This document shows positions 36,895 through 46,576 of a stretch of DNA of 64,000 nucleotides, one piece after another. Position numbers and translations under genes: made by a program. The stretch is taken from contig JBBRPR010000011.1 in the NCBI GenBank assembly GCA_038227875.1, positions 64,001 through 128,000 on the forward strand, written 5' to 3'. This DNA is from Planctomycetota bacterium (lineage in GTDB: Bacteria; Planctomycetota; SZUA-567; H5-PLA8). Below the pieces are notes generated by a model that was given only the letters and a program-made list of their open reading frames with translations, was not told the DNA's origin and searched no databases. The first letter of the stretch is position 1, and the number at the start of each line of letters is the position of its first letter.

Positions 36895-37536
36895 ATGGCT
36901 AGTCACGAGACCCTCCCCTCTACCACCCGAGAACGATTGCTGGAAGCGGCCGGTGAATCGTTTGCCGAACATGGATTTCAAGGCGCGACGATCAAGGACA
37001 TTTGTCTGCGCGCGGAAGCGAACATCGCGGCGGTCAATTACCACTTCCGCGACAAGAACACGCTTTACCTGGAGGTGCTCCGCTACGCGCAAAAGTACGC
37101 GCGCGAAAAGTACCCCAACCCGATGCCGGACTCGGGGCTCGCGGCCGAAGAGCGGCTGCGGGAGTATGTCGTGAAATTCATGATGCGAATTCTCGACACG
37201 GGACGACCCGCGTGGCATAGCAAATTGATGGCGCGCGAAATGGTCGACCCGACTGCGGCTCTGGACGAAGTCGTGAAGGAGACCATCTCACCGAACTTCT
37301 CCATCTTATTCAATATCGTTCAGGAATTGCTCGGAGAGAAATTTAATACCGAAGAGGTCAGGCTCAGCACCTCCAGTGTGCTCTCCCAGTGCCTCTTCTA
37401 CTTTCATTGCCGCAACGTGATCGAACGCCTGAATCCGGGCTTCGAATATTCCGAACCCAATATCCGCAACATCGCCGCGCACATCGCCGACTTCTCGCTG
37501 GCGGCAATCGCAAAAATCCGCGCGGACCGCGAGTAA
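36895..37536 (+). CDS. TetR-family regulator (CecR/DUF1956-type C-terminus)
   Basis: TRERLLEAAGESFAEHGF, AVNYHFRDK HTH, HIADFSLAAI. Confidence 0.92.
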   Translation: MASHETLPSTTRERLLEAAGESFAEHGFQGATIKDICLRAEANIAAVNYHFRDKNTLYLEVLRYAQKYAREKYPNPMPDSGLAAEERLREYVVKFMMRILDTGRPAWHSKLMAREMVDPTAALDEVVKETISPNFSILFNIVQELLGEKFNTEEVRLSTSSVLSQCLFYFHCRNVIERLNPGFEYSEPNIRNIAAHIADFSLAAIAKIRADRE

Positions 37537-37558
37537 GACGCACTGGGAGAACGACACC

Positions 37559-38956
37559 ATGATTACGGAAGAACTCGAATCCACCGACGCGGCCAGCCCG
37601 CCGAAAAATACGCCCCCCGCTCCGTCCCAGCCCCCAGCCGAGAAGCCGACGACTGCAGTGCCCTCGAGCCGCAGAAAGTACTTGCTTGTGTTCGGCGCGA
37701 TCATCCTGGTCGTCGCTGCCGTTGCCGGTCAGCGACTTCTCGCGTTCTGGTCCCAGTATCAGTCGACCGACGATGCGTTCATCGACGGCCACATCATTCC
37801 CACCAGCGCGCGCGTCGCCGGTCATGTGGCGAAAGTGCATGTCGAAGACAACCAGCTTGTGAAATCTGGTGATCTGCTCGTGGAAATCGATCCGCGTGAC
37901 TACGAGACCAAGCTCGCGCAGGCGAAGGCCGCACTGCAGGTGCTCGAAGCAAAGAAGAAAGCCGCTGAAGATACCGCCGCGATGACCCGCACCACTTCTG
38001 CCGCGGCCGTCGCTCAAGCGCAAGCCAATGTCGCCCTTGCCCGCGCGGCCGTGCAGACTGCCGCGGCCGACATCGAAGCCGCGAAGGGCCGCCAGGCGCG
38101 CGCGGATGCCGAGATCGTTTCCGCGAAGGCCAAGATCGAACAGGCGCAGGCACAGGCGACCGCGACCGATGCCTACGTCACGCGCACCCAGCAGGATGTC
38201 GACCGCTACAAGCTTGCCGTCGAAGCCAGCGCCGGATCGCGCCAGCAGTACGAATATGCCATCGCCGCTCACGACGCGGCCGTCGCGGTGCTCGATGCCG
38301 CGCAAAAGTCGGTTGCATCGGCGCAGGCGAATCTGAATTCCGAGCTCGCGGCGAAGTCCTCCGTTGCCGCCGAGGCCGAACAGTCGGCGTCGCGGAAGGT
38401 CGAAGCAGAGGCGCGCGTCAACGACGCTCTGGGAAAATTGGCCTCGGCACTGTCGGCGCCGCAGCAGATCGCCGTCGCCGACTCGGAAGTCGTCGCCATG
38501 GCCGCGCAAGTCGAGCAGGCCCGTGCCGCGCTGCGGCAGGCGGAGCTGGATCTTTCGTACACTAAAGTCTTCGCCACGGAAGACGGCCGCGTGACGCGCA
38601 AGTCTGTGGAAAACGGCGCGTACATCCAGGCCGGCGAAACACTGCTGGCACTGGTCCCGCAGAATGTCTGGATCACCGCGAATTTTAAAGAGACCCAACT
38701 GACCGACATGAAAGCCGGCAATGCCGTCGACGTCACCATCGACGCGTATCCCGGAAAGTCCTTCAAGGCTCATGTCGAAAGCATCCAGTCGGGAACCGGC
38801 GCGCGCTTCGCGCTCCTTCCTCCGGAGAATGCAACGGGCAACTTCGTAAAGGTCGTCCAGCGTGTGCCGGTCAAGATTACCTTCGACGTTCCCGCCAGCG
38901 CTGACGTCCTTCTGGCGCCAGGCATGTCAGTCGTTCCTGAGGTGAAAGTCAAATGA
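37559..38956 (+). CDS. EmrA/HlyD-family membrane fusion protein
   Basis: STDDAFI, ANFKETQL, LLPPENATGNFVKVVQRVPV. Confidence 0.95.
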   Translation: MITEELESTDAASPPKNTPPAPSQPPAEKPTTAVPSSRRKYLLVFGAIILVVAAVAGQRLLAFWSQYQSTDDAFIDGHIIPTSARVAGHVAKVHVEDNQLVKSGDLLVEIDPRDYETKLAQAKAALQVLEAKKKAAEDTAAMTRTTSAAAVAQAQANVALARAAVQTAAADIEAAKGRQARADAEIVSAKAKIEQAQAQATATDAYVTRTQQDVDRYKLAVEASAGSRQQYEYAIAAHDAAVAVLDAAQKSVASAQANLNSELAAKSSVAAEAEQSASRKVEAEARVNDALGKLASALSAPQQIAVADSEVVAMAAQVEQARAALRQAELDLSYTKVFATEDGRVTRKSVENGAYIQAGETLLALVPQNVWITANFKETQLTDMKAGNAVDVTIDAYPGKSFKAHVESIQSGTGARFALLPPENATGNFVKVVQRVPVKITFDVPASADVLLAPGMSVVPEVKVK

Positions 38957-40560
38957 GCGCGGCGGCCGCCACACTCGGCGCGCGGCCAGCCTTCGCCGTC
39001 GACGAATGGAGGCCGGCGCACAATCCGTATCTCGTCGCGCTGACCGTAACGCTGGCGACGTTCATGGAAGTACTCGACACCAGCATCGCCAACGTCGCGC
39101 TGCCGCACATCGCCGGCAATCTCTCCGCGAGTGTCGACGAGAGCACGTGGGTGCTGACCTCGTACCTCGTTTCGAACGCGATCGTCCTGCCCCTGAGCGG
39201 CTGGCTCAGCAGCGTATTCGGGCGCAAGCGCTTCTACATGACCTGCGTCGCGCTGTTCACGATTAGTTCGGCGCTATGTGGATTCGCGCCCAATCTGCGA
39301 ATGCTGATTTTCTTCCGCGTGCTCCAGGGCATCGGCGGCGGCGGACTGCAGCCCAGCGAACAAGCGATACTCTACGATACGTTCCCTGCCAGAAAGCGCG
39401 CCATGGGCATGGCGCTCTACGGCGTCGCGGTCGTTACCGCGCCAATCATCGGGCCGACACTCGGGGGATGGATCACCGACAACTACAGTTGGCGCTGGAT
39501 CTTCTTCATCAACATTCCCGTCGGCATCGTTTCACTGCTGCTGACTTCGCGCATGGTCAGCGATCCCCCGCACCTCGTCCGCCGCGCCTTGAAAGACACG
39601 CGCATCGACTTCATCGGCCTGGGCCTGTTGGCGCTGGGGCTTGGCGCGCTCCAGATCGTGCTCGACAAAGGTCAACGGGAAGACTGGTTCCAATCGTCGC
39701 TGATCGTCCTCCTCACGTTGACGGCGGTGGTGGGTATCGCATCGGCGGTCATCTGGGAATTGAAACAGCGCGAACCGCTCGTTGATTTCCGGCTGCTCAG
39801 CAACCGCAACTTCGCGATCTCGACGGTGATGATGTTCACGCTCGGCTTCGTGCTCTTTGGCAGTACCGTGCTGCTCCCGCTTTTTCTGCAGACGCTGATG
39901 GGATATTCGGCGGTCTTGAGCGGCATGGCGATCTCACCCGGCGGAATTCTGACCATGTTCGCAATGCCGCTGGTCGGATGGATGATCGGCCACTTTGATG
40001 CACGCAAGCTGATCGTCGCCGGCCTGATCATCGTCTCGATCGGATTGTTCCACATGGCATCGTTCAATCTGGAAATCGATTTCAAGACCGCGATGATCGC
40101 CCGGATGATTCAGGCTTTCGGCCTCGCGTTTCTCTTTGTTCCCATCAACACCATGGCCTATTCGACGATCCCCAAGAAGGATGCCAACCAGGCCAGCGGT
40201 CTGATCAACCTCGCGCGCAACCTTGGCGGAAGTTTCGGCATTGCGTTTGTCACCACGCTGCTCTCGCGTCAGGCGCAGGCCCACCAGAATATGCTCGTTG
40301 GACATGTCACGCCTTACGATCCGGCATACAAAAACATGATGAACCACATGACCACCGTGATGCACGTAAACTCCGCCGACCCCGTGAAGGCCACGGCGCA
40401 AGCGCACGGTGTCATCAACGGCATGCTGGAACGCCAGGCCTCGATGCTCTCGTTCGTCGACGCCTTCTGGCTGCTCGGAGCGTTCGCGGTGGTGGTGATC
40501 CCGTTGATTGTGCTGATGAAGCGCCCCACGCCGGGTGCGGAACCCGTCGCGGTGCATTAG
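38953..40560 (+). CDS. DHA2-family MFS efflux permease (EmrB-like)
   Basis: LDTSIANVALP, WVLTSYL, WRWIFFINIP; many TM segments. Confidence 0.96.
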   Translation: MSAAAATLGARPAFAVDEWRPAHNPYLVALTVTLATFMEVLDTSIANVALPHIAGNLSASVDESTWVLTSYLVSNAIVLPLSGWLSSVFGRKRFYMTCVALFTISSALCGFAPNLRMLIFFRVLQGIGGGGLQPSEQAILYDTFPARKRAMGMALYGVAVVTAPIIGPTLGGWITDNYSWRWIFFINIPVGIVSLLLTSRMVSDPPHLVRRALKDTRIDFIGLGLLALGLGALQIVLDKGQREDWFQSSLIVLLTLTAVVGIASAVIWELKQREPLVDFRLLSNRNFAISTVMMFTLGFVLFGSTVLLPLFLQTLMGYSAVLSGMAISPGGILTMFAMPLVGWMIGHFDARKLIVAGLIIVSIGLFHMASFNLEIDFKTAMIARMIQAFGLAFLFVPINTMAYSTIPKKDANQASGLINLARNLGGSFGIAFVTTLLSRQAQAHQNMLVGHVTPYDPAYKNMMNHMTTVMHVNSADPVKATAQAHGVINGMLERQASMLSFVDAFWLLGAFAVVVIPLIVLMKRPTPGAEPVAVH

Positions 40561-40777
40561 TTCACTATGGTGGTCGACCCTTGTCTTTCGGAAGTTCGAT
40601 CGGCTCCCGTTTCGGCCAAAGACTGTTCTTCGTTCCCGTCCGTGAAATGCGTACCGCGTTGGCATTCAGCTGATTGAGGTTCATTTTTTGATTCACAGTA
40701 TTTCGAAACTGCACTTTAGGTCGGTGCATAAGATCCTCTTATTTTTGGGGTTGATGAAAAGATTCCACAGCACAATT

Positions 40778-40817
40778 CACGGACCGCGGATGCTTCGCAA
40801 GCCATCCGCGGCCCGCG
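40778..40817 (-). terminator. Strong GC hairpin after micro-ORF / ECF sigma transcript
   Basis: CGGACCGCGGATG..CATCCGCGGCCCG inverted repeat; only a weak U-tract. Confidence 0.5.
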
Positions 40818-40836
40818 CGAGAGTTACCCGGTTTCG

Positions 40837-40884
40837 CTACCGACCGGCGCCCACTCCCTGGGCGTACATCTGGAAGATAAACAT
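40837..40884 (-). CDS. Putative 15-aa micropeptide MFIFQMYAQGVGAGR
   Basis: GAAAGGAGG Shine-Dalgarno, ATG at normal spacing, TAG stop, followed by a hairpin. Confidence 0.4.
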   Translation of the reverse strand: MFIFQMYAQGVGAGR

Positions 40885-40942
40885 CGTTCTTCCTCCTTTC
40901 CGAAAGGCGGGTGATAAGCCGCTGACCAGCGCAGCCAGAAGC

Positions 40943-41497
40943 TTAGCCTTTCAGCTCCAAATCGATTTCAGGTACGACTTCACTAAACGAGGAATTCGTT
41001 TCAGCTGACTTATTCCAGAGCAGGTAGCGCCGCCGAATTTCCCGCACGTGGTACGCGACGTTGGCTGACGTAAACCCCAGCTCCGCGCCGGTGTCGCGCC
41101 AGGTCAGTCCGTTGAGCAGACAGCGCAAAATCCGCTGCTGCAACGCCGTCAGTTGAGCCGAGAACTCGTCGAGTTCCACGCGGTCGTCCGGCAGAAACGT
41201 GGGCGCTGCGATATCCAGCTCGTCGACACTGGCGCAAGTCCGCAGGCGCGTATACTTCACCGCGTCGAGCATGCGCCAGCGCGCACGCTGAATCAGATAC
41301 GGCGTGAGTTCCCCGCGCGATGGATCGAAATCGTCCACCGCTTCCAGCAGCGCCAGCCACGCCTCCTGCAGCAGGTCGTCGCGATCGAGCCGCGAACAGC
41401 GGGCGTAGTGCTCCGCCATCCGAGCCACGCGCGCGTGCAGGTCGAGCATCAGTTGTTCGGACGAATGTATGGATGAAACGGTGGCATCCGTGAGCAT
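40943..41497 (-). CDS. Sigma-70 family (ECF-like) RNA polymerase sigma factor
   Basis: Region 2 DDLLQEAWLALLEAVDDFD; region 4 LTALQQRIL..GLTWRDTGAELG..NVAYHVREIRRR. Confidence 0.88.
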   Translation of the reverse strand: MLTDATVSSIHSSEQLMLDLHARVARMAEHYARCSRLDRDDLLQEAWLALLEAVDDFDPSRGELTPYLIQRARWRMLDAVKYTRLRTCASVDELDIAAPTFLPDDRVELDEFSAQLTALQQRILRCLLNGLTWRDTGAELGFTSANVAYHVREIRRRYLLWNKSAETNSSFSEVVPEIDLELKG

Positions 41498-41590
41498 CGT
41501 CAGTCGGTTCTCCAAAGTGAAAACGTGAGCGTACCGCCGCACGGTTCACGAAGGAGAATTGAGAATCTAACGGGTCAGGAAAAGAGAAAG

Positions 41591-41647
41591 TTAGATCCGA
41601 ATGCCTTCGGAAAGTGCAGCGATGGGGTTGAACAGTTTATTTTTCAC
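41591..41647 (-). CDS. Putative 18-aa leader peptide MKNKLFNPIAALSEGIRI
   Basis: GAAAGGAGGT Shine-Dalgarno, GTG start, TAA stop. Confidence 0.4.
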   Translation of the reverse strand: MKNKLFNPIAALSEGIRI

Positions 41648-41735
41648 CGTACACCTCCTTTCAAAGGTCATGAATCGGACTTCAGAGACATATAGCGGCA
41701 GTGGATCGAATTGCTAAAGAAATCTTTTGAGATTA

Positions 41736-42104
41736 TTAGAAACGATAACTGAATATCTTACCTAACAGCATCAGCATTCTCTTTGGAAGTCCGGCTTCGG
41801 CATAGCGTTGCTGCCATACCGCTTCCTCTTGCCTTTTTCGATTAAGATACACAACCCGCTCTGTCTTGATACGTTCTACGACGTATTCTTCGACGCCACT
41901 TAGCCCGCAAATTTTTCCAAGATAGCCAGCGAAATCGCCAACAGTCTTGATCTTCACGTCGGCATCCACAAATCGAATCTCAAATTCTGCTTCGACCGCT
42001 TCCACCAAATGCGATGCAAAATCCATTTCATCGCCGTCGAGATCTTCTGAAAAAGTGGTCTCCATGAAGCCCAGTTCGGGCGCCACATCAAAAATGCGCG
42101 CCAC
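41736..42104 (-). CDS. Acyl-carrier-protein-like protein lacking the DSL serine
   Basis: TFSEDLDGDEMDF..LVEAVEAEFEIRFVD..IKTVGD resembles ACP; start uncertain. Confidence 0.6.
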   Translation of the reverse strand: MARIFDVAPELGFMETTFSEDLDGDEMDFASHLVEAVEAEFEIRFVDADVKIKTVGDFAGYLGKICGLSGVEEYVVERIKTERVVYLNRKRQEEAVWQQRYAEAGLPKRMLMLLGKIFSYRF

Positions 42105-42146
42105 GATCTGAACCGTCCGATCGCACAGTTGTTGATCCGGGGCGCA

Positions 42147-42941
42147 TCACACAATCGACTGCACGCATCCACCTTCCACGCGCACGGCCGCTCCGTTAGT
42201 CGCCGATCCCTGCGGACTGCTTAGAAATACCACCATCGCCGCGACTTCATCCGTCGTAATGAAGCGTTTGAGTAGCGACGTTGGGCGCGCGGTTTTGAAG
42301 AAATTAGCTTCAATTTCCGCCGCGGTTTTTTTCTGATCGCGAGCCAGATCCTTCACGAACGTTTCCACGCCTTCCGACTTCGTCGGCCCGACCAGCACCG
42401 AGTTGACCGTCACATTCGAACCGGCCGTCAGTTGCGCCAGCCCTCGAGCGACGGCCAACTGCGCCGTCTTGGTCATGCCGTAATGGATCATCTCCTGCGG
42501 AATGTTCAGCGCCGATTCGCTGGAAATGAACACCACACGGCCCCAGTTCTGCTTCATCATCTTGGGAAAATAAAAACGCGAGAGCCGCACGCCGCTCATC
42601 ACGTTCACTTCAAAGAAGCGCATCCAGTCTGCATCAGGAATCTCGCCGAACGCTTTCGGTTCGAAGATGCCGAGGTTGTTGATCAGGATGTCGACCTCTG
42701 GAAGTTGCTCCGTGGCCTTTGCGACGCCGTCCTTCGAACCGAGGTCCGCCGCGATGCCGACGACGTCCGCGCCGCGCACATCCAGTTTGATTTTCGACAG
42801 CGCTTCATCCACGCGGTGTTGCGTCCTCCCGTTGACGATGACGCTTGCGCCTTCGCGCGCCAGCCCCGCCGCGATGGCAAAGCCGATTCCTGCAGTCGAC
42901 CCTGAGACCAGTGCACGTTTGCCGTTTAGTTTTAGATCCAT
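42147..42941 (-). CDS. SDR-family oxidoreductase
   Basis: GSTAGIG, NNLG, YGMTK. Confidence 0.95.
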   Translation of the reverse strand: MDLKLNGKRALVSGSTAGIGFAIAAGLAREGASVIVNGRTQHRVDEALSKIKLDVRGADVVGIAADLGSKDGVAKATEQLPEVDILINNLGIFEPKAFGEIPDADWMRFFEVNVMSGVRLSRFYFPKMMKQNWGRVVFISSESALNIPQEMIHYGMTKTAQLAVARGLAQLTAGSNVTVNSVLVGPTKSEGVETFVKDLARDQKKTAAEIEANFFKTARPTSLLKRFITTDEVAAMVVFLSSPQGSATNGAAVRVEGGCVQSIV

Positions 42942-43060: not shown

Positions 43061-46000
43061 TCAGCGGTCAGGCATCGTATCGACCAACTGGCAGCGCTTC
43101 CACAGCCACGGGTTGCCGAAGGGCTCCGTGTTGGGAGGCGTCAGCGTGAGGCCGCGTTTGCGGCCGTCGCCATCGTTGTCGTTAATCAGCAGCGAAAGTC
43201 CCAGAACGGTCCCGGCCCGCAGATCTACGGCGGCGATCGCGGCGGGCTGAAACGTTGCGCGAAGTTGCCAGCCGGTCGCTGTCTTCTTCCACTGCGCTTT
43301 GACCTCCGGATCCTGCCCGTTGACGGTATTGTTTGCGCCAACAAAGCGGCCACCGGGCGCTTGATCCAACCAAGCCAGAGCGGAATCGTCGTCTTTGCGG
43401 CCCAGCACCCACGTCGAGATGTTGCCATCGCCCGTCGCCATCGGCGCTCGGACGCTGGCGCGCTGGTCGAGATAAAACTGGAGCGAATCAAAATTGTAGC
43501 CGTCGGAGCCGCGGTTGGGACCGGTCACGACTCGGTCATCCGTCACTTCCGCCCAGAGATGCAAGCCGGCGGGACTCCACGCGAAAGCCACGCGGGCAGC
43601 GAGATCGGCCGGACCCTTATGCGGATGCAGCGCGTCAAAATCCTTGGATAAACTTTCTTCGCCCAAGTCCAGCCAATCCTTCGGCTGCCACGTCTCCACG
43701 TCGCCGTTCAGCCGCGGAATCAGGAGGACCGGAATGCGCAGCCGGCCCGCGTCAAGATCGTCACCGCAGGTCACTTCGTAACCCAGCACCGCATCGGACT
43801 GCCATGGAAATTTCTCCGCCGGCAGGATCAGGTCTGCGGTCCCGAAAGGAGGGAGCTCAAATTTCCATTCGTCGCGAGGCACAGTCACGCCTGCACTCGC
43901 TTCCGTCCAGTGGATCCGGCAAGCTAAGGCCCGACGCTCATGATTGTGTACTGTCACTTTGACTTTTCCGTCGAGCAATCGGGAAGCAGTGAGCCCCAGC
44001 GGAAAAGCAAAACCGCGCCAGTCGGCAGTCTGGAGACTCTGAATCGCCGTGTCCGCAGCAGTTCCAGCGGGAAAGGTGAGATACAACGGCAAATACGTCA
44101 CCGGCAAATCGTCGCCGTTCAGGGGATTGCCGTTGACGTCGAATGCGGAGCACAGTTTCGGCCGTGTCAGCATTCCCTTTTCACCGTAGACACGCGCGTT
44201 GATGGAGGCCACAAGCGAACCGTCCGCGCGCGTGAACAACAGTGCCCGGGCGGCATCGTGAACGGGCACGTTTCGTCCGCTGACGATGTTGATGCCGAGT
44301 TTGGCGATGGCTCGAAAGCCCCCCGCCGCCAGATAGAGCCAGGACGAAGAGAAAGGCGTGTGCACAAAAACGCAGGTATTTGAGGTCAACGCGCCAAACG
44401 GCGCGCCGACTGTCATGCCATGAAGCACCGTCTGCAGGATCCGGCCGGCCTGCTCCGTTTCGTTGGCGGCGAAATAGCTGCGTTCGTATTCGCCCTGATG
44501 GATTCCATTAAGGACGCCGTAGTACTGTTCGCTGTTGACGATGGGCATTCCAGGCGCAGCGCGGTCCATGATCGCGCGCAGTCGGTTCAAATCGTTCACG
44601 ATCGGCGCGTTCTCAGCGGAGTTGCGGTAGGGATGCACCGTCACCAGATCAATCAGTTTCAAGCCGCCCAGTTTGGCCACCGCGTCCACGTAGTCACAAT
44701 CGATGCCGTTCACATTTAAGGCCAGCTTTACGTGCGGAGCCACGCGGCGCACTTCCGGAGCCACCGCGGAAAGCACCTGCATGTAGCGGCTGGGCGGCAT
44801 GGCGCTCTGGCCATTGACCGTCCAGATGTTGGGTTCGTTGAGCATTTCAATCTCGTCGACGACGCCGTCCAAGGCATGAGCGACTTCCGCAAACCCGGCG
44901 ACGTAGCGCGGCAGTTCCTTCGCCACGTCCTCATCCGTGGGCGGTTTTCCGGCTTTGGACATGGTATGAAAGTTCAAGGTCGAATCGTTAGCCGGCTCGA
45001 TCACGATCATCGTCCGTTTTGCGGTGCGGTGCTGCTCGCTCAAGATCCGCGCGGCGCGTTCCAGCGCCGGATCGGCTCCGCCACCCGAATGCAATTCGTA
45101 AAATGTGCGCCGAAATCCCATGCCCAGCCGCTTGGATACAGATTCCCCGAAACGAAACAGGGCCATCGTCTGCTGCAACGGAAGGGTATCGAGTCCGATC
45201 AGCGAATTGATTTCCGGATCGGCAGCAAAGACGGCGTATCGTGCGTCGGATTCGGCCACGACTCCGCCGGCGGCGTCGGCCACACTGAGCTGGCAGGCGA
45301 TCACGCCTTCGAGTTCGTGATTTACCGGAATCGAAATGGCGCGACGCGTCTCCGCTCCGATCGCAATCTCCACCTTCGTCTCAAAAACCACTTCTGTTGC
45401 GGCGTCCACTGCGCGCAGTTTTAGCCACAACGGATCTTTAACACCTCCGGGCAGTTGGACGATCGCATTTAACTCCGCCGGACCCGGCCGCAGAATTCCG
45501 CCGTCGCCAGGGGCGTCCAATCCAACCTGCGGCCCACATGCGTACGCGGTGGCCGCATCGCCGTCTTCAACCTGGACTGAATCTACATCTATCGAGCGTA
45601 CTGGATCGATGCGCACATACACACTATTGGCATGCGGATGCCCCTCGTCCGAGGGGCGGAACGTGACGAAGAACCGTTTCCACTCCGTGGTCAGCTCGCC
45701 GGCTTTGACCGGCAGCTCTTTGAATTTCCAATTCGGAGTGATGAGAAAACAACGTGCGGCGAGATCGTCGCCGTGCGCCTCCCCAGCCCGCGTACCCGGC
45801 GACAGTCGCAGGCTGAACGAAAGCGTATAGGGATGATTGGGAATCGCCGGCATGACTGCGCTGATCAAACTGGCGCCACCGCCGGGCAAACGAATCGCAT
45901 AGGGAGCGCTTTCGGGCGCGTCGGCAATACGCGAAGGAAGCGGGGCGTCGACATCCTTGGGTGGCCAGCACTCCAGAAACCAGCCGCCGGCGCCGGCGTC

Positions 46001-46576
46001 AAAGCCAGGATTCTCAAGCATATTTTTGCGCTGAGGCCGGCGGACCTCCGCGGTCGCGCCAACCGTGGCCAATGCCAAAGACGGACCAGAAATCTCAGCG
46101 TCTCCTTGAGTGATGGAGACATGCAGAAATATAGGCCGCCCCGCCCAATCCTTTCCCGACGGTACACTGGTTGCTAAACGATACCGTCGCCACGTTCCGG
46201 TCAAGGCCACTGACTGCGGCGCGTACCAATGCTTGCCGTCGCGCGGATCGGAATAGATGATCAGCGTCAGCGCCTGGCCAGCGTGCGATGCGCGCGCGAC
46301 GATCTCGGCGGACACGGATTCGCCCGGCTTGTCGACGGAAAGCGTGGCCACCCGCAAACAGACGCCTTCTGCCGCGCCCTCCGGCACGGAGAGATGCACG
46401 ACAGGAGCGCCGCCGGGTGCGTTCGCTCCGGCTGAAATCGTTGCCGCGCCGCCAGCCTTCGCGCCATCAAATCGCGTCCAACCTTCGGGTAGCTTGGTTG
46501 GTTCCGCAGCGCGCGCTACGGATGCGCACAGCAGAATAATAGCCGCCAGAGTTAAATGTTTGCGAGGATGAGCCAT
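43061..46576 (-). CDS. Large secreted glycoside hydrolase-like protein (CBM-like domains, clan GH-A-like core, C-terminal CBM9-like domain)
   Basis: Signal peptide, ENPGFD, MLNEPN, VTVHPY, IVNSEQY, FDSLQFYLD, LSLLINDND. Confidence 0.75.
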   Translation of the reverse strand: MAHPRKHLTLAAIILLCASVARAAEPTKLPEGWTRFDGAKAGGAATISAGANAPGGAPVVHLSVPEGAAEGVCLRVATLSVDKPGESVSAEIVARASHAGQALTLIIYSDPRDGKHWYAPQSVALTGTWRRYRLATSVPSGKDWAGRPIFLHVSITQGDAEISGPSLALATVGATAEVRRPQRKNMLENPGFDAGAGGWFLECWPPKDVDAPLPSRIADAPESAPYAIRLPGGGASLISAVMPAIPNHPYTLSFSLRLSPGTRAGEAHGDDLAARCFLITPNWKFKELPVKAGELTTEWKRFFVTFRPSDEGHPHANSVYVRIDPVRSIDVDSVQVEDGDAATAYACGPQVGLDAPGDGGILRPGPAELNAIVQLPGGVKDPLWLKLRAVDAATEVVFETKVEIAIGAETRRAISIPVNHELEGVIACQLSVADAAGGVVAESDARYAVFAADPEINSLIGLDTLPLQQTMALFRFGESVSKRLGMGFRRTFYELHSGGGADPALERAARILSEQHRTAKRTMIVIEPANDSTLNFHTMSKAGKPPTDEDVAKELPRYVAGFAEVAHALDGVVDEIEMLNEPNIWTVNGQSAMPPSRYMQVLSAVAPEVRRVAPHVKLALNVNGIDCDYVDAVAKLGGLKLIDLVTVHPYRNSAENAPIVNDLNRLRAIMDRAAPGMPIVNSEQYYGVLNGIHQGEYERSYFAANETEQAGRILQTVLHGMTVGAPFGALTSNTCVFVHTPFSSSWLYLAAGGFRAIAKLGINIVSGRNVPVHDAARALLFTRADGSLVASINARVYGEKGMLTRPKLCSAFDVNGNPLNGDDLPVTYLPLYLTFPAGTAADTAIQSLQTADWRGFAFPLGLTASRLLDGKVKVTVHNHERRALACRIHWTEASAGVTVPRDEWKFELPPFGTADLILPAEKFPWQSDAVLGYEVTCGDDLDAGRLRIPVLLIPRLNGDVETWQPKDWLDLGEESLSKDFDALHPHKGPADLAARVAFAWSPAGLHLWAEVTDDRVVTGPNRGSDGYNFDSLQFYLDQRASVRAPMATGDGNISTWVLGRKDDDSALAWLDQAPGGRFVGANNTVNGQDPEVKAQWKKTATGWQLRATFQPAAIAAVDLRAGTVLGLSLLINDNDGDGRKRGLTLTPPNTEPFGNPWLWKRCQLVDTMPDR

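Follow-up and report, generated by a model that had tools for sequence, protein, structure and literature searches.

Organization of the sigma factor locus

We analyzed a sigma factor gene and its flanks in a 64,000-nt stretch of DNA from a Planctomycetota bacterium (assembly GCA_038227875.1, contig JBBRPR010000011.1, positions 64,001 to 128,000), referred to below as the window and numbered from its first base. The gene (41497-40943, minus strand) encodes an ECF-like (extracytoplasmic function), apparently two-domain sigma factor of the sigma-70 family with 184 amino acids (aa), and it is flanked on the same strand by two structured RNA elements. Element U (41685-41498) is the structured 5' leader RNA of the sigma gene and carries an upstream mini-ORF (open reading frame). 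Element D follows the gene; its structured core (40901-40819) is supported by a covariance model (R1) and by the predicted fold. The sigma gene, element U and element D form a conserved, self-contained unit of ~1 kb, which we call the cassette; coordinates within it refer to the minus strand throughout.

A promoter-like motif (TTTAGCA, 18 bases, TATATG; 41718-41689), of the same type as the motif found in relatives, lies upstream of the U leader. The Shine-Dalgarno sequence (SD) of the upstream mini-ORF, AAAGGAGGT (41661-41653), is paired in the predicted fold; its GGAGG core occupies 41658-41654 within CCTTTGAAAGGAGGT and is followed five bases on by GTG at 41647 (the site can also be written as AAAGGAGG then GTG). 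The upstream mini-ORF MKNKLFNPIAALSEGIRI (41647-41591) starts at this GTG and has 18 codons, with its stop at 41593-41591, and a spacer of 93 nt separates it from the sigma gene. The downstream SD (AAAGGAGG, 40899-40892; GGAGG core at 40896-40892 within CCTTTCGGAAAGGAGG) is located 43 nt past the sigma gene, and seven bases separate it from the ATG of the downstream mini-ORF MFIFQMYAQGVGAGR (40884-40837; 15 codons, stop at 40839-40837). The unit is closed by a strong, GC-rich, terminator-like hairpin (~40818-40778), present in both the minimum free energy (MFE) and centroid folds, and relatives have a hairpin with a T-run at this position. An earlier sequence-only reading by a model had described two pairs of SD and micro-ORF flanking an ECF-type sigma gene, with a strong hairpin past the downstream pair; after the coordinates were re-read on the minus strand, these sequence facts were found to be correct.

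Family searches bear on the ECF-like assignment. TIGR02937 (sigma70-ECF superfamily) spans residues 14-157 at 50.7 bits, above its cut-off of 42.9, and region 2 was found in the Pfam search as PF04542 (Sigma70_r2; E 3.1e-13, 49.7 bits vs a cut-off of 24). The region 4 matches (residues 108-157) both fell under their cut-offs (PF08281, 16.7 bits vs 25.7; GerE, 17.1 bits vs 23.5). FliA/WhiG was the second-best NCBIfam match over region 2, and the closest PDB entries by sequence were sigma-H, SigE, and WhiG.

Conservation of the cassette in related genomes

Motif counts alone say little about the two SDs. AAAGGAGG occurs four times in the window against 1.4 expected, a count reached by 7 of 100 shuffled sequences, and 98 times on both strands of the 9.34 Mb genome; the significance of the SD and mini-ORF pairs therefore rests on conservation. 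A sigma homologue at E ≤1e-10 was found in two of 60 relatives (L003 and L004), both from another genus of the same family. Each has upstream of the sigma gene AAAGGAGGT, five bases, GTG and a 21-codon frame (MEDYLMQHPVAPRTLPFAIRN in L003, MKNKSKQHPVAPRTHPFADRN in L004). Downstream of it each has AAAGGAGGT, five bases, GTG or TTG and a 13-codon frame, followed by a terminator; the downstream peptides read MFKVYFTLGAGCR (L003, GTG start) and MFKLRITPGAGCR (L004, TTG start).

We then extended the comparison to 70 further loci from one genome per species and from metagenomes, with sigma factors 36-55% identical in the best tblastn segment (70 of the 114 loci returned, weak matches being left out). 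Most are from metagenome-assembled genomes (MAGs) of Armatimonadota, and a few are labelled Planctomycetota, Actinomycetota or Terriglobus; overall the cassette recurs in dozens of uncultured bacteria from soil and water. Where the upstream flank measured 400 nt or more, 46 of 66 loci have an AAGGAG(G)-type SD, a start codon and a frame of 12-60 codons at 60-450 nt before the sigma match, so that the sigma gene leader holds an ORF with a ribosome-binding site as an attenuator would; when the SD is relaxed to any GGAG, the count rises to 57 of 66. Of the 55 loci whose downstream flank was no shorter than 400 nt, 35 were found to have element D. The synteny comparison suggested by the sequence-only reading was thus answered in its favor, as the SD-ORF pairs do recur beside sigma homologues.

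In the window's genome D is a single-copy element (covariance model R1, 43.9 bits, E 2.6e-7). Its placement varies among relatives: in L053 (951-1032) it precedes both the leader and the sigma gene, and in L005 (3056-3146) and L067 (3414-3497) it lies ~1 kb downstream of the sigma gene with one gene in between. Rfam 15 contained no match to U or D in 40300-42300 at E values up to 10, the sole match there being RMST_1 (E 5.8, 42035-42069), outside both elements. In 15 related loci searched at E up to 1, Rfam gave only miRNA-like matches to a long hairpin in L037; this near-perfect hairpin (1948-2083) is located between the sigma stop and D, and its matches to miRNA precursors are spurious. D is a candidate new family of structured small RNA, absent from Rfam. 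The titles and abstract openings of papers returned by full-text literature searches contained no description of the cassette, which, as far as sequences tell, would be an orphan sigma factor with its own promoter type and two self-masked mini-ORF RNAs as its only conserved partners. We consider the structure and the conservation of the cassette to be solid.

Element U, the leader of the sigma gene

The predicted fold of U in the window is more stable than expected (z -3.11), and none of 200 shuffled sequences folded as well. The upstream SD pairs with TGCACTTTCC (~41618-41609) inside its own mini-ORF, the arm opposite the SD region being the 3' half of that mini-ORF (~41618-41604). The window copies of U and D have diverged but follow the same plan. 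The same architecture is found in relatives, with the SD conserved as (c)cGAAAGGAGG: ccGGAAAGGAGGCGAGCG pairs with CGCTCGCCTCGTTCCGG, which is at the same time the codons for R-S-P-R-S-G. Duplex energies for the SD arm with the 3' arm of the ORF have a median of -20.2 kcal/mol and go down to -34.5 kcal/mol, with z below -2 in 25 of 56 leaders when compared with shuffled arms. Both mini-ORF SDs had been described as occluded by hairpins with a CCTTT arm in common. That both are paired holds in the predicted folds, where the partner is the mini-ORF itself and not the CCTTT arm. The hairpin drawn upstream, CCTTT-G-AAAGG, is sterically impossible since its loop would have 1 nt; CCTTT hairpins are absent from the MFE and centroid folds of U and D, in which the CCTTT stretches pair elsewhere.

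A second masked site lies at the end of the leader. In the window, TTCTCC (41558-41553) pairs with the sigma SD GGAGAA (41513-41508) in both the MFE and centroid folds; the pair encloses a weak hairpin (~41549-41517), followed by GTTTTCACTTT. The pairing GTTCTCC...GGAGAAC is also found in L003 and L004. The ensemble unpaired probability of the sigma SD is 0.04 in the window, and over 24 loci the mean is 0.18 for the SD of the upstream ORF (uORF) and 0.16 for the sigma SD. In many Armatimonadota a GC-rich leader terminator hairpin, conserved in sequence, is nested in the outer helix formed by the sigma SD and a TTCTC-rich strand. Under strict criteria, by which leaders with bulged stems are not counted, 20 of 59 distinct leaders have a terminator of the form CGGGCCGCGGGC...GCCTGCGGCCCG then TTTTGCGTTT after the mini-ORF stop and before the sigma SD.

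Element D, the downstream RNA

The window D also folds with a favorable z score (-2.78). Its helix P2 is formed by GGAGGA (the SD) and TCTTCC inside the mini-ORF, and P3 by GGAGT and ACTCT, with the stop codon held in the inner hairpin. Across the loci D carries a mini-ORF of 11-15 codons and ends in a strong terminal hairpin. P2 in relatives joins the SD and its flank, GGAGGTGGGTG, to CACCCGCCCC within the frame and leaves the start codon in the loop; P3 (GGAGC with GCTCC just past the stop) surrounds a small stop-bearing hairpin, and a strong terminator follows directly. In L015 (~2071-2140), four tandem copies of a 15-nt unit, caaagaagtcccggt, follow D in place of a plain terminator.

We examined the support for these helices in a trimmed seed alignment of 16 sequences with a hand-written structure, on which the covariance model was built. 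In the seed, 79.9% of cells pair, compared with 38-49% when the partners are slid, and 0 of 500 shuffles reached this value. P3 reaches 96.6% pairing, and four of its six pairs have changed on both sides, as seen in GAGGC/GCCTC (L027) and GGAGT/ACTCT (window). The 39 distinct D sequences aligned to the model, an alignment which favors the structure, gave 80.7% paired cells (33-49% for slid partners) and both-side changes in 16 of 22 pairs. RNAalifold returned no structure on a raw MAFFT alignment of 32 D sequences. The D model weakly matches U leaders (E 0.3-0.9), and the terminators of U and D have a GGCCGCGGGC/GCCTGCGGCC core in common, which together suggest that U and D are paralogous.

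The genes located past D are unrelated and often convergent, and D was therefore rejected as the leader of a downstream gene. In most lineages D would be a separate small transcription unit. In the window it is probably co-transcribed as the 3' trailer of the sigma mRNA, as it has no promoter motif of its own and starts 43 nt past the sigma stop.

A promoter motif common to U and D

Both elements are preceded in relatives by TTTAGC(A/G), 17 bases and (C)GATA. Of 56 distinct leaders, 44 have the motif, written as TTAGCN-N15-18-[GT]A[TC]A, ahead of the upstream SD, and it precedes 21 of 31 distinct D elements; the spacing is always the same, and these two positions account for most of its 89 occurrences on both strands of all loci. 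In six loci (L008, L011, L015, L028, L034, and L055) the TAG stop of the sigma gene sits inside TTTAGC, the -35-like element of the D promoter motif, so that the end of the gene overlaps that motif. The conserved -10 part is CGATA and not the housekeeping hexamer; it presumably resembles the -10 element of FliA-type promoters.

Genome-wide, the strict motif is rare. It was found four times in the 9.34 Mb genome of the window. Five Armatimonadota genomes reached through the loci (G061-G065, four of them single-chromosome records) were scanned in the same way: copies at the cassette made up 2 of 2 in G062, 2 of 3 in G064, 2 of 5 in G063, and 1 of 1 in G065, and G061 had none at all. The reversed control pattern occurred 0-1 times per strand in these five genomes. 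The other three copies in the window's genome are at C3:83615 (+), C10:181069 (+), and C1:236548 (-), and unrelated genes or no obvious genes follow them, as is also the case for the off-cassette copies in G063 and G064. At C3 the TATAAT is perfect, and a 163-aa His-rich membrane protein is encoded next; what follows at C10 is AAAAGGAGA, with a short ORF or a 448-aa zinc-ribbon-like protein.

The cognate anti-sigma gene of an ECF group is usually adjacent, and most ECF-like sigma factors are restrained by anti-sigma proteins. The sequence-only reading had noted that no anti-sigma gene is adjacent here, and we reached the same result: no candidate adjoins the sigma gene, and the neighboring 122-aa and 54-aa ORFs have no Pfam match. 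A search for a conserved protein partner across 64 loci gave, as the largest neighbor family, one present in 10 of the 64, which represents lineage-specific synteny. We concluded from these comparisons that the sigma factor is an orphan with no conserved protein partner.

Two interpretations of D draw on this promoter motif. One takes D as a small RNA (sRNA) acting in trans: it would pair with mRNAs, the sigma leader or others, and thereby open or close the leader; anti-antisense control of this kind is known for the rpoS leader. The separate promoter motif in 21 of 31 distinct D elements, the strong terminator and the unrelated, often convergent genes that follow all fit such an RNA, the C-rich strand CACCCGCCCC and the repeated GGAGG strands could pair with ribosome-binding regions, and the weak matches of the D model to U leaders indicate a common architecture. 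On the other hand, the best D-U duplexes in 17 loci were no better than those of shuffled D (z -2.3 to +1.3; targets beyond U were not searched), and the strands that extend the helices in U (GGAGGCG...) and in D (GGAGGTGGGTG) match their own partners and not each other. Pairing of D with the sigma leader in trans is thus unsupported, and we consider a trans-acting D quite unlikely.

The other interpretation reverses the roles: the sigma factor would serve mainly to make D. The two would form a self-contained toggle of sigma factor and RNA, with D or its product of 13-15 residues as the true output, titrating ribosomal subunits or braking its own sigma factor or polymerase (as a sigma-specific, 6S-like or anti-sigma RNA). 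The titration, or a brake at the RNA level, could draw on the extended SD of D (AAGGAGGTG...) and on its C-rich strand. The idea follows from a promoter type nearly confined to the sigma gene and D and from the missing protein partner, and we regard it as unlikely.

Coding potential of the mini-ORFs

Next, we examined whether the two frames behave as translated sequences. Among 31 distinct D elements the starts are ATG (23), TTG (5), GTG (2), and CTG (1), and a canonical start lies 5-12 nt past GGAGG in 30 of them. The 57 candidate upstream frames all have a canonical start, having been chosen by requiring one, and the figure to be read as a frequency is the 46 of 66 loci given above. When D was anchored on nucleotide motifs alone, 23 of 27 rows had an in-frame canonical start; three of the other four were mis-anchored by the pattern, and the fourth is L019. 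ATG (window), GTG (L003), and TTG (L004) interchange at the same D start position. At codon 2, AAA or AAG has a frequency of 39% among D frames, compared with 2.1% in the sigma coding sequences. Stops lie within a narrow distance past the helix.

The frames are also kept open where their reading shifts. In five loci of two lineages (L022/L025 and L042-L044) the U helix arm falls in a different reading frame; indels of +2 and +1 cancel each other out, and the frame from MFVT... to the ...GCC TGA stop is intact, which argues for selection on an open frame and not on its residues. The residues themselves follow the RNA. D frames, of which there are 29 distinct versions, have the C-terminus ...(T)PAPGAG(R)(R), with MKSLNPAPGASLR and MLTWTPAPGAGR as examples, and U frames contain ...R-S/L-P-R-S/F-G...; the DNA encoding these motifs is the helix arms, and base pairing in the RNA explains most of the conservation in the peptides. 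In the loop part, even close relatives differ freely in their residues (KVITP vs KVNAP, KVYFTL vs KLRITP, H vs Q).

These results bear first on the possibility that the mini-ORFs encode working micropeptides, either a tiny anti-sigma factor or co-factor or a secreted signal, as the sequence-only reading had also entertained. A single register of the D frame in all 29 distinct versions, the widespread C-terminal motif of the ...PAPGAG(R)R type, and the apparent position of D as the main conserved target of the promoter type that it has in common with the sigma gene are all in its favor, and there is a precedent in the 14-aa leader peptide peTrpL, which reportedly acts in trans (PMC7298713). Against these stand the free variation off the helix arms, the R-S-P-R-S/F-G motif that is out of frame in the five loci above, and window peptides that have little in common with the Armatimonadota ones. 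Among the neighbor families of the 64 loci, no gene for a modifying enzyme, exporter or receptor is conserved near the cassette. Selection on residues independent of RNA structure, which would mark a functional micropeptide, was not found in these frames. We judge working micropeptides very unlikely, and this part of the sequence-only reading was not upheld.

The same results can be turned toward an explanation without translation, in which U and D are purely non-coding structured RNAs (riboswitch-like, protein-binding or of the thermometer type), GGAGG is a helix strand or binding site, and the frames are incidental. The exact coincidence of peptide motifs and helix arms is in its favor; both SDs are paired in the predicted ensembles, with covariation backing the helices; and conservation goes beyond the needs of pairing, for example in GGAGCAGGGCG and GAAATGCTCC around the internal loop. 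The glycine codon of the D motif is GGA in 26 of 29 distinct frames, its third position seldom varying, and L019 has CTG at the D start position (with the frame still open). Against incidental frames stand the canonical starts 5-12 nt past GGAGG, the swapping of ATG, GTG, and TTG at one position between close relatives, the AAR enrichment at codon 2, and frames held open through compensating indels, with stops in a narrow range. We consider a purely non-coding role possible, though on the doubtful side. Translation of the mini-ORFs is likely on this evidence, and because starts, spacing and open frames are kept and residues are not, the frames probably act in cis through the passage of ribosomes and not as peptide genes.

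Neighboring genes

A short-chain dehydrogenase (SDR) gene (42941-42147, minus strand) and the 122-aa ORF (42104-41736, minus strand) directly precede the cassette. The ORF has a partial acyl-carrier-protein-like match over residues 14-62 (NCBIfam E 1.8e-6, far under cut-off) and a 60-residue tail. Farther upstream, the protein encoded at 43061-46576 (minus strand) has 1171 aa, an N-terminus resembling a signal peptide and, at its C-terminus, a CBM9-like domain (E 1.8e-6); it is otherwise unannotated. On the other side, the 54-aa ORF (40729-40565, minus strand), preceded by AAGAGGA, is located between the terminal hairpin and the end of a convergent MFS gene; it had no match across the family libraries and no counterpart in L003 or L004.

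That MFS gene belongs to an efflux operon (TetR of the CecR_C type, HlyD, and MFS; 36895-40560, plus strand). The convergent drug efflux operon reported by the sequence-only reading is therefore present in the window; its adjacency to the cassette is not conserved in relatives, and we rejected a link between the two as incidental. In eight to nine loci of one lineage (L063, L020, and other Capsulimonadaceae) a BlaI/MecI-like repressor and a long, possibly BlaR1-like membrane protein lie divergently upstream of the cassette, the names being assigned by visual inspection of the sequences. A defense-system origin was rejected, the PADLOC matches being marginal only (E 0.005 or weaker). A phage origin was rejected as well: PHROGs gave generic phage sigma families, and IMG/VR contained distant relatives at 28-33% identity.

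Discussion

As the best explanation of the cassette, held with moderate confidence, we propose a leader-gated sigma factor with a ribosome-dependent attenuator. The sigma factor would transcribe its own gene and D from the common promoter type, and the leader would lock sigma synthesis by premature termination, by masking of the sigma SD, or by both. The state of the lock would depend on whether the strong SD, while exposed during transcription, is captured by a ribosome that goes on to translate the mini-ORF. That SD would be open only while the polymerase sits between the two helix arms, and whether a pioneer ribosome loads in this interval would reflect initiation capacity and the availability of free 30S subunits, so that the attenuator may read translational status and not a particular peptide. 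Leader-peptide attenuation, one of the two control schemes offered by the sequence-only reading, thus survives as the best fit for U, given its SD, start spacing, compensated frames and, in many relatives, a terminator; it does not extend to D, which leads nothing.

Several observations weigh against this proposal, including the near-constant GGA codon, which fits a purely RNA-level function, and the CTG of L019. No antiterminator pairing was recognized in the leaders, nor any anti-sequestor by which a ribosome would set an alternative fold, and the distance from the mini-ORF stop to the terminator ranges from 28 to 96 nt. We tested in silico whether a ribosome at the uORF stop would unmask the sigma SD and obtained no support for this step, the unpaired probability being 0.16 vs 0.17 over 24 loci. 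In the window itself, and likewise in L003 and L004, no leader terminator passed the strict criteria, the terminal hairpin (40818-40778) has no T-run and was not flagged by the consensus terminator scan, and D has no promoter motif. A clear U is absent in 20 of 66 loci, D is not within the available flank in 20 of 55, and L057 has a truncated D. Transcription of the sigma gene and of D by the sigma factor is inferred from their common motif. The RNA evidence, from the one RNA run in which any of the stretch was present, is one 197-nt metatranscriptome contig from a near-identical relative (two differences over 41459-41655), which runs from the mini-ORF across the spacer into the sigma start; it is a weak hint, as DNA carry-over is possible and contigs reveal no transcript starts, ends or levels.

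The cassette can be compared with several known systems. Attenuators of the trp/his type are ribosome-dependent and have a leader ORF. Such attenuators and the cassette both have a short frame in the 5' leader and RNA pairing that restricts the ribosome-binding site of the leader ORF. An intrinsic terminator ahead of the regulated gene is a further parallel in many Armatimonadota, and the attenuator-sized RNA may in both cases exist as a separate sRNA. In Sinorhizobium meliloti, the RNA released by the trpL attenuator (rnTrpL) and the 14-aa peTrpL reportedly also act in trans (PMC7298713, PMC7968998). The cassette differs in that it has no regulatory codon run or identifiable antiterminator and that the regulated gene is a sigma factor. 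Its leader SD is buried in a helix of up to ~20 bp with its own 3' half, and a second, stand-alone copy (D), in most lineages with its own promoter motif, follows the gene; the window copy also has no clear leader terminator.

Translational attenuation of the ermC/cat type offers a second comparison, together with the toiL uORF. In those systems, and as proposed for the cassette, a tiny uORF steers a gene by ribosome position and RNA refolding, with the SD of the gene masked. The cassette, by contrast, has no conserved stalling motif, the SD of its uORF is itself masked, and its efflux link is not conserved. The toiL uORF precedes topAI-yjhQ and reportedly senses ribosome-targeting antibiotics or translation stress (PMC12121999).

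For D, the nearest parallel may be found in sRNAs that belong to a sigma regulon. MicA, RybB, and MicL are sigma-E-dependent small RNAs of enterobacteria, and D would resemble them as an RNA apparently made from an ECF-like sigma promoter type and as a core regulon member. Unlike them, D is physically linked to the sigma gene, contains a mini-ORF served by a very strong SD, and appears to be the near-sole conserved target beside the sigma gene itself. The sigma factors of the clostridial TcdR family ('group 5') are small and two-domain, have no classical adjacent anti-sigma factor, are positively autoregulated and serve tiny dedicated regulons, in which they drive toxin or bacteriocin genes. 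The cassette may resemble them in its small sigma factor of apparently two domains without an adjacent anti-sigma, and perhaps in autoregulation and a very small regulon; the targets differ (toxin or bacteriocin genes vs a small RNA), and we know of no mini-ORF leader in that family.

The cassette bears on small-ORF annotation, in that conserved 'micropeptide' motifs can be shadows of RNA helices. It is also a compact and portable model in which a strong, self-masked ribosome-binding site and a mini-ORF would gate a transcription factor. If D is the real output, the cassette would both sense translation capacity and act on it. For the organisms concerned, mainly Armatimonadota and some Planctomycetota MAGs, the orphan sigma factor appears to have RNA partners only, and its promoter motif would define a very small regulon. 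If the mini-ORFs do read ribosome availability, translational status would be tied directly to promoter choice.

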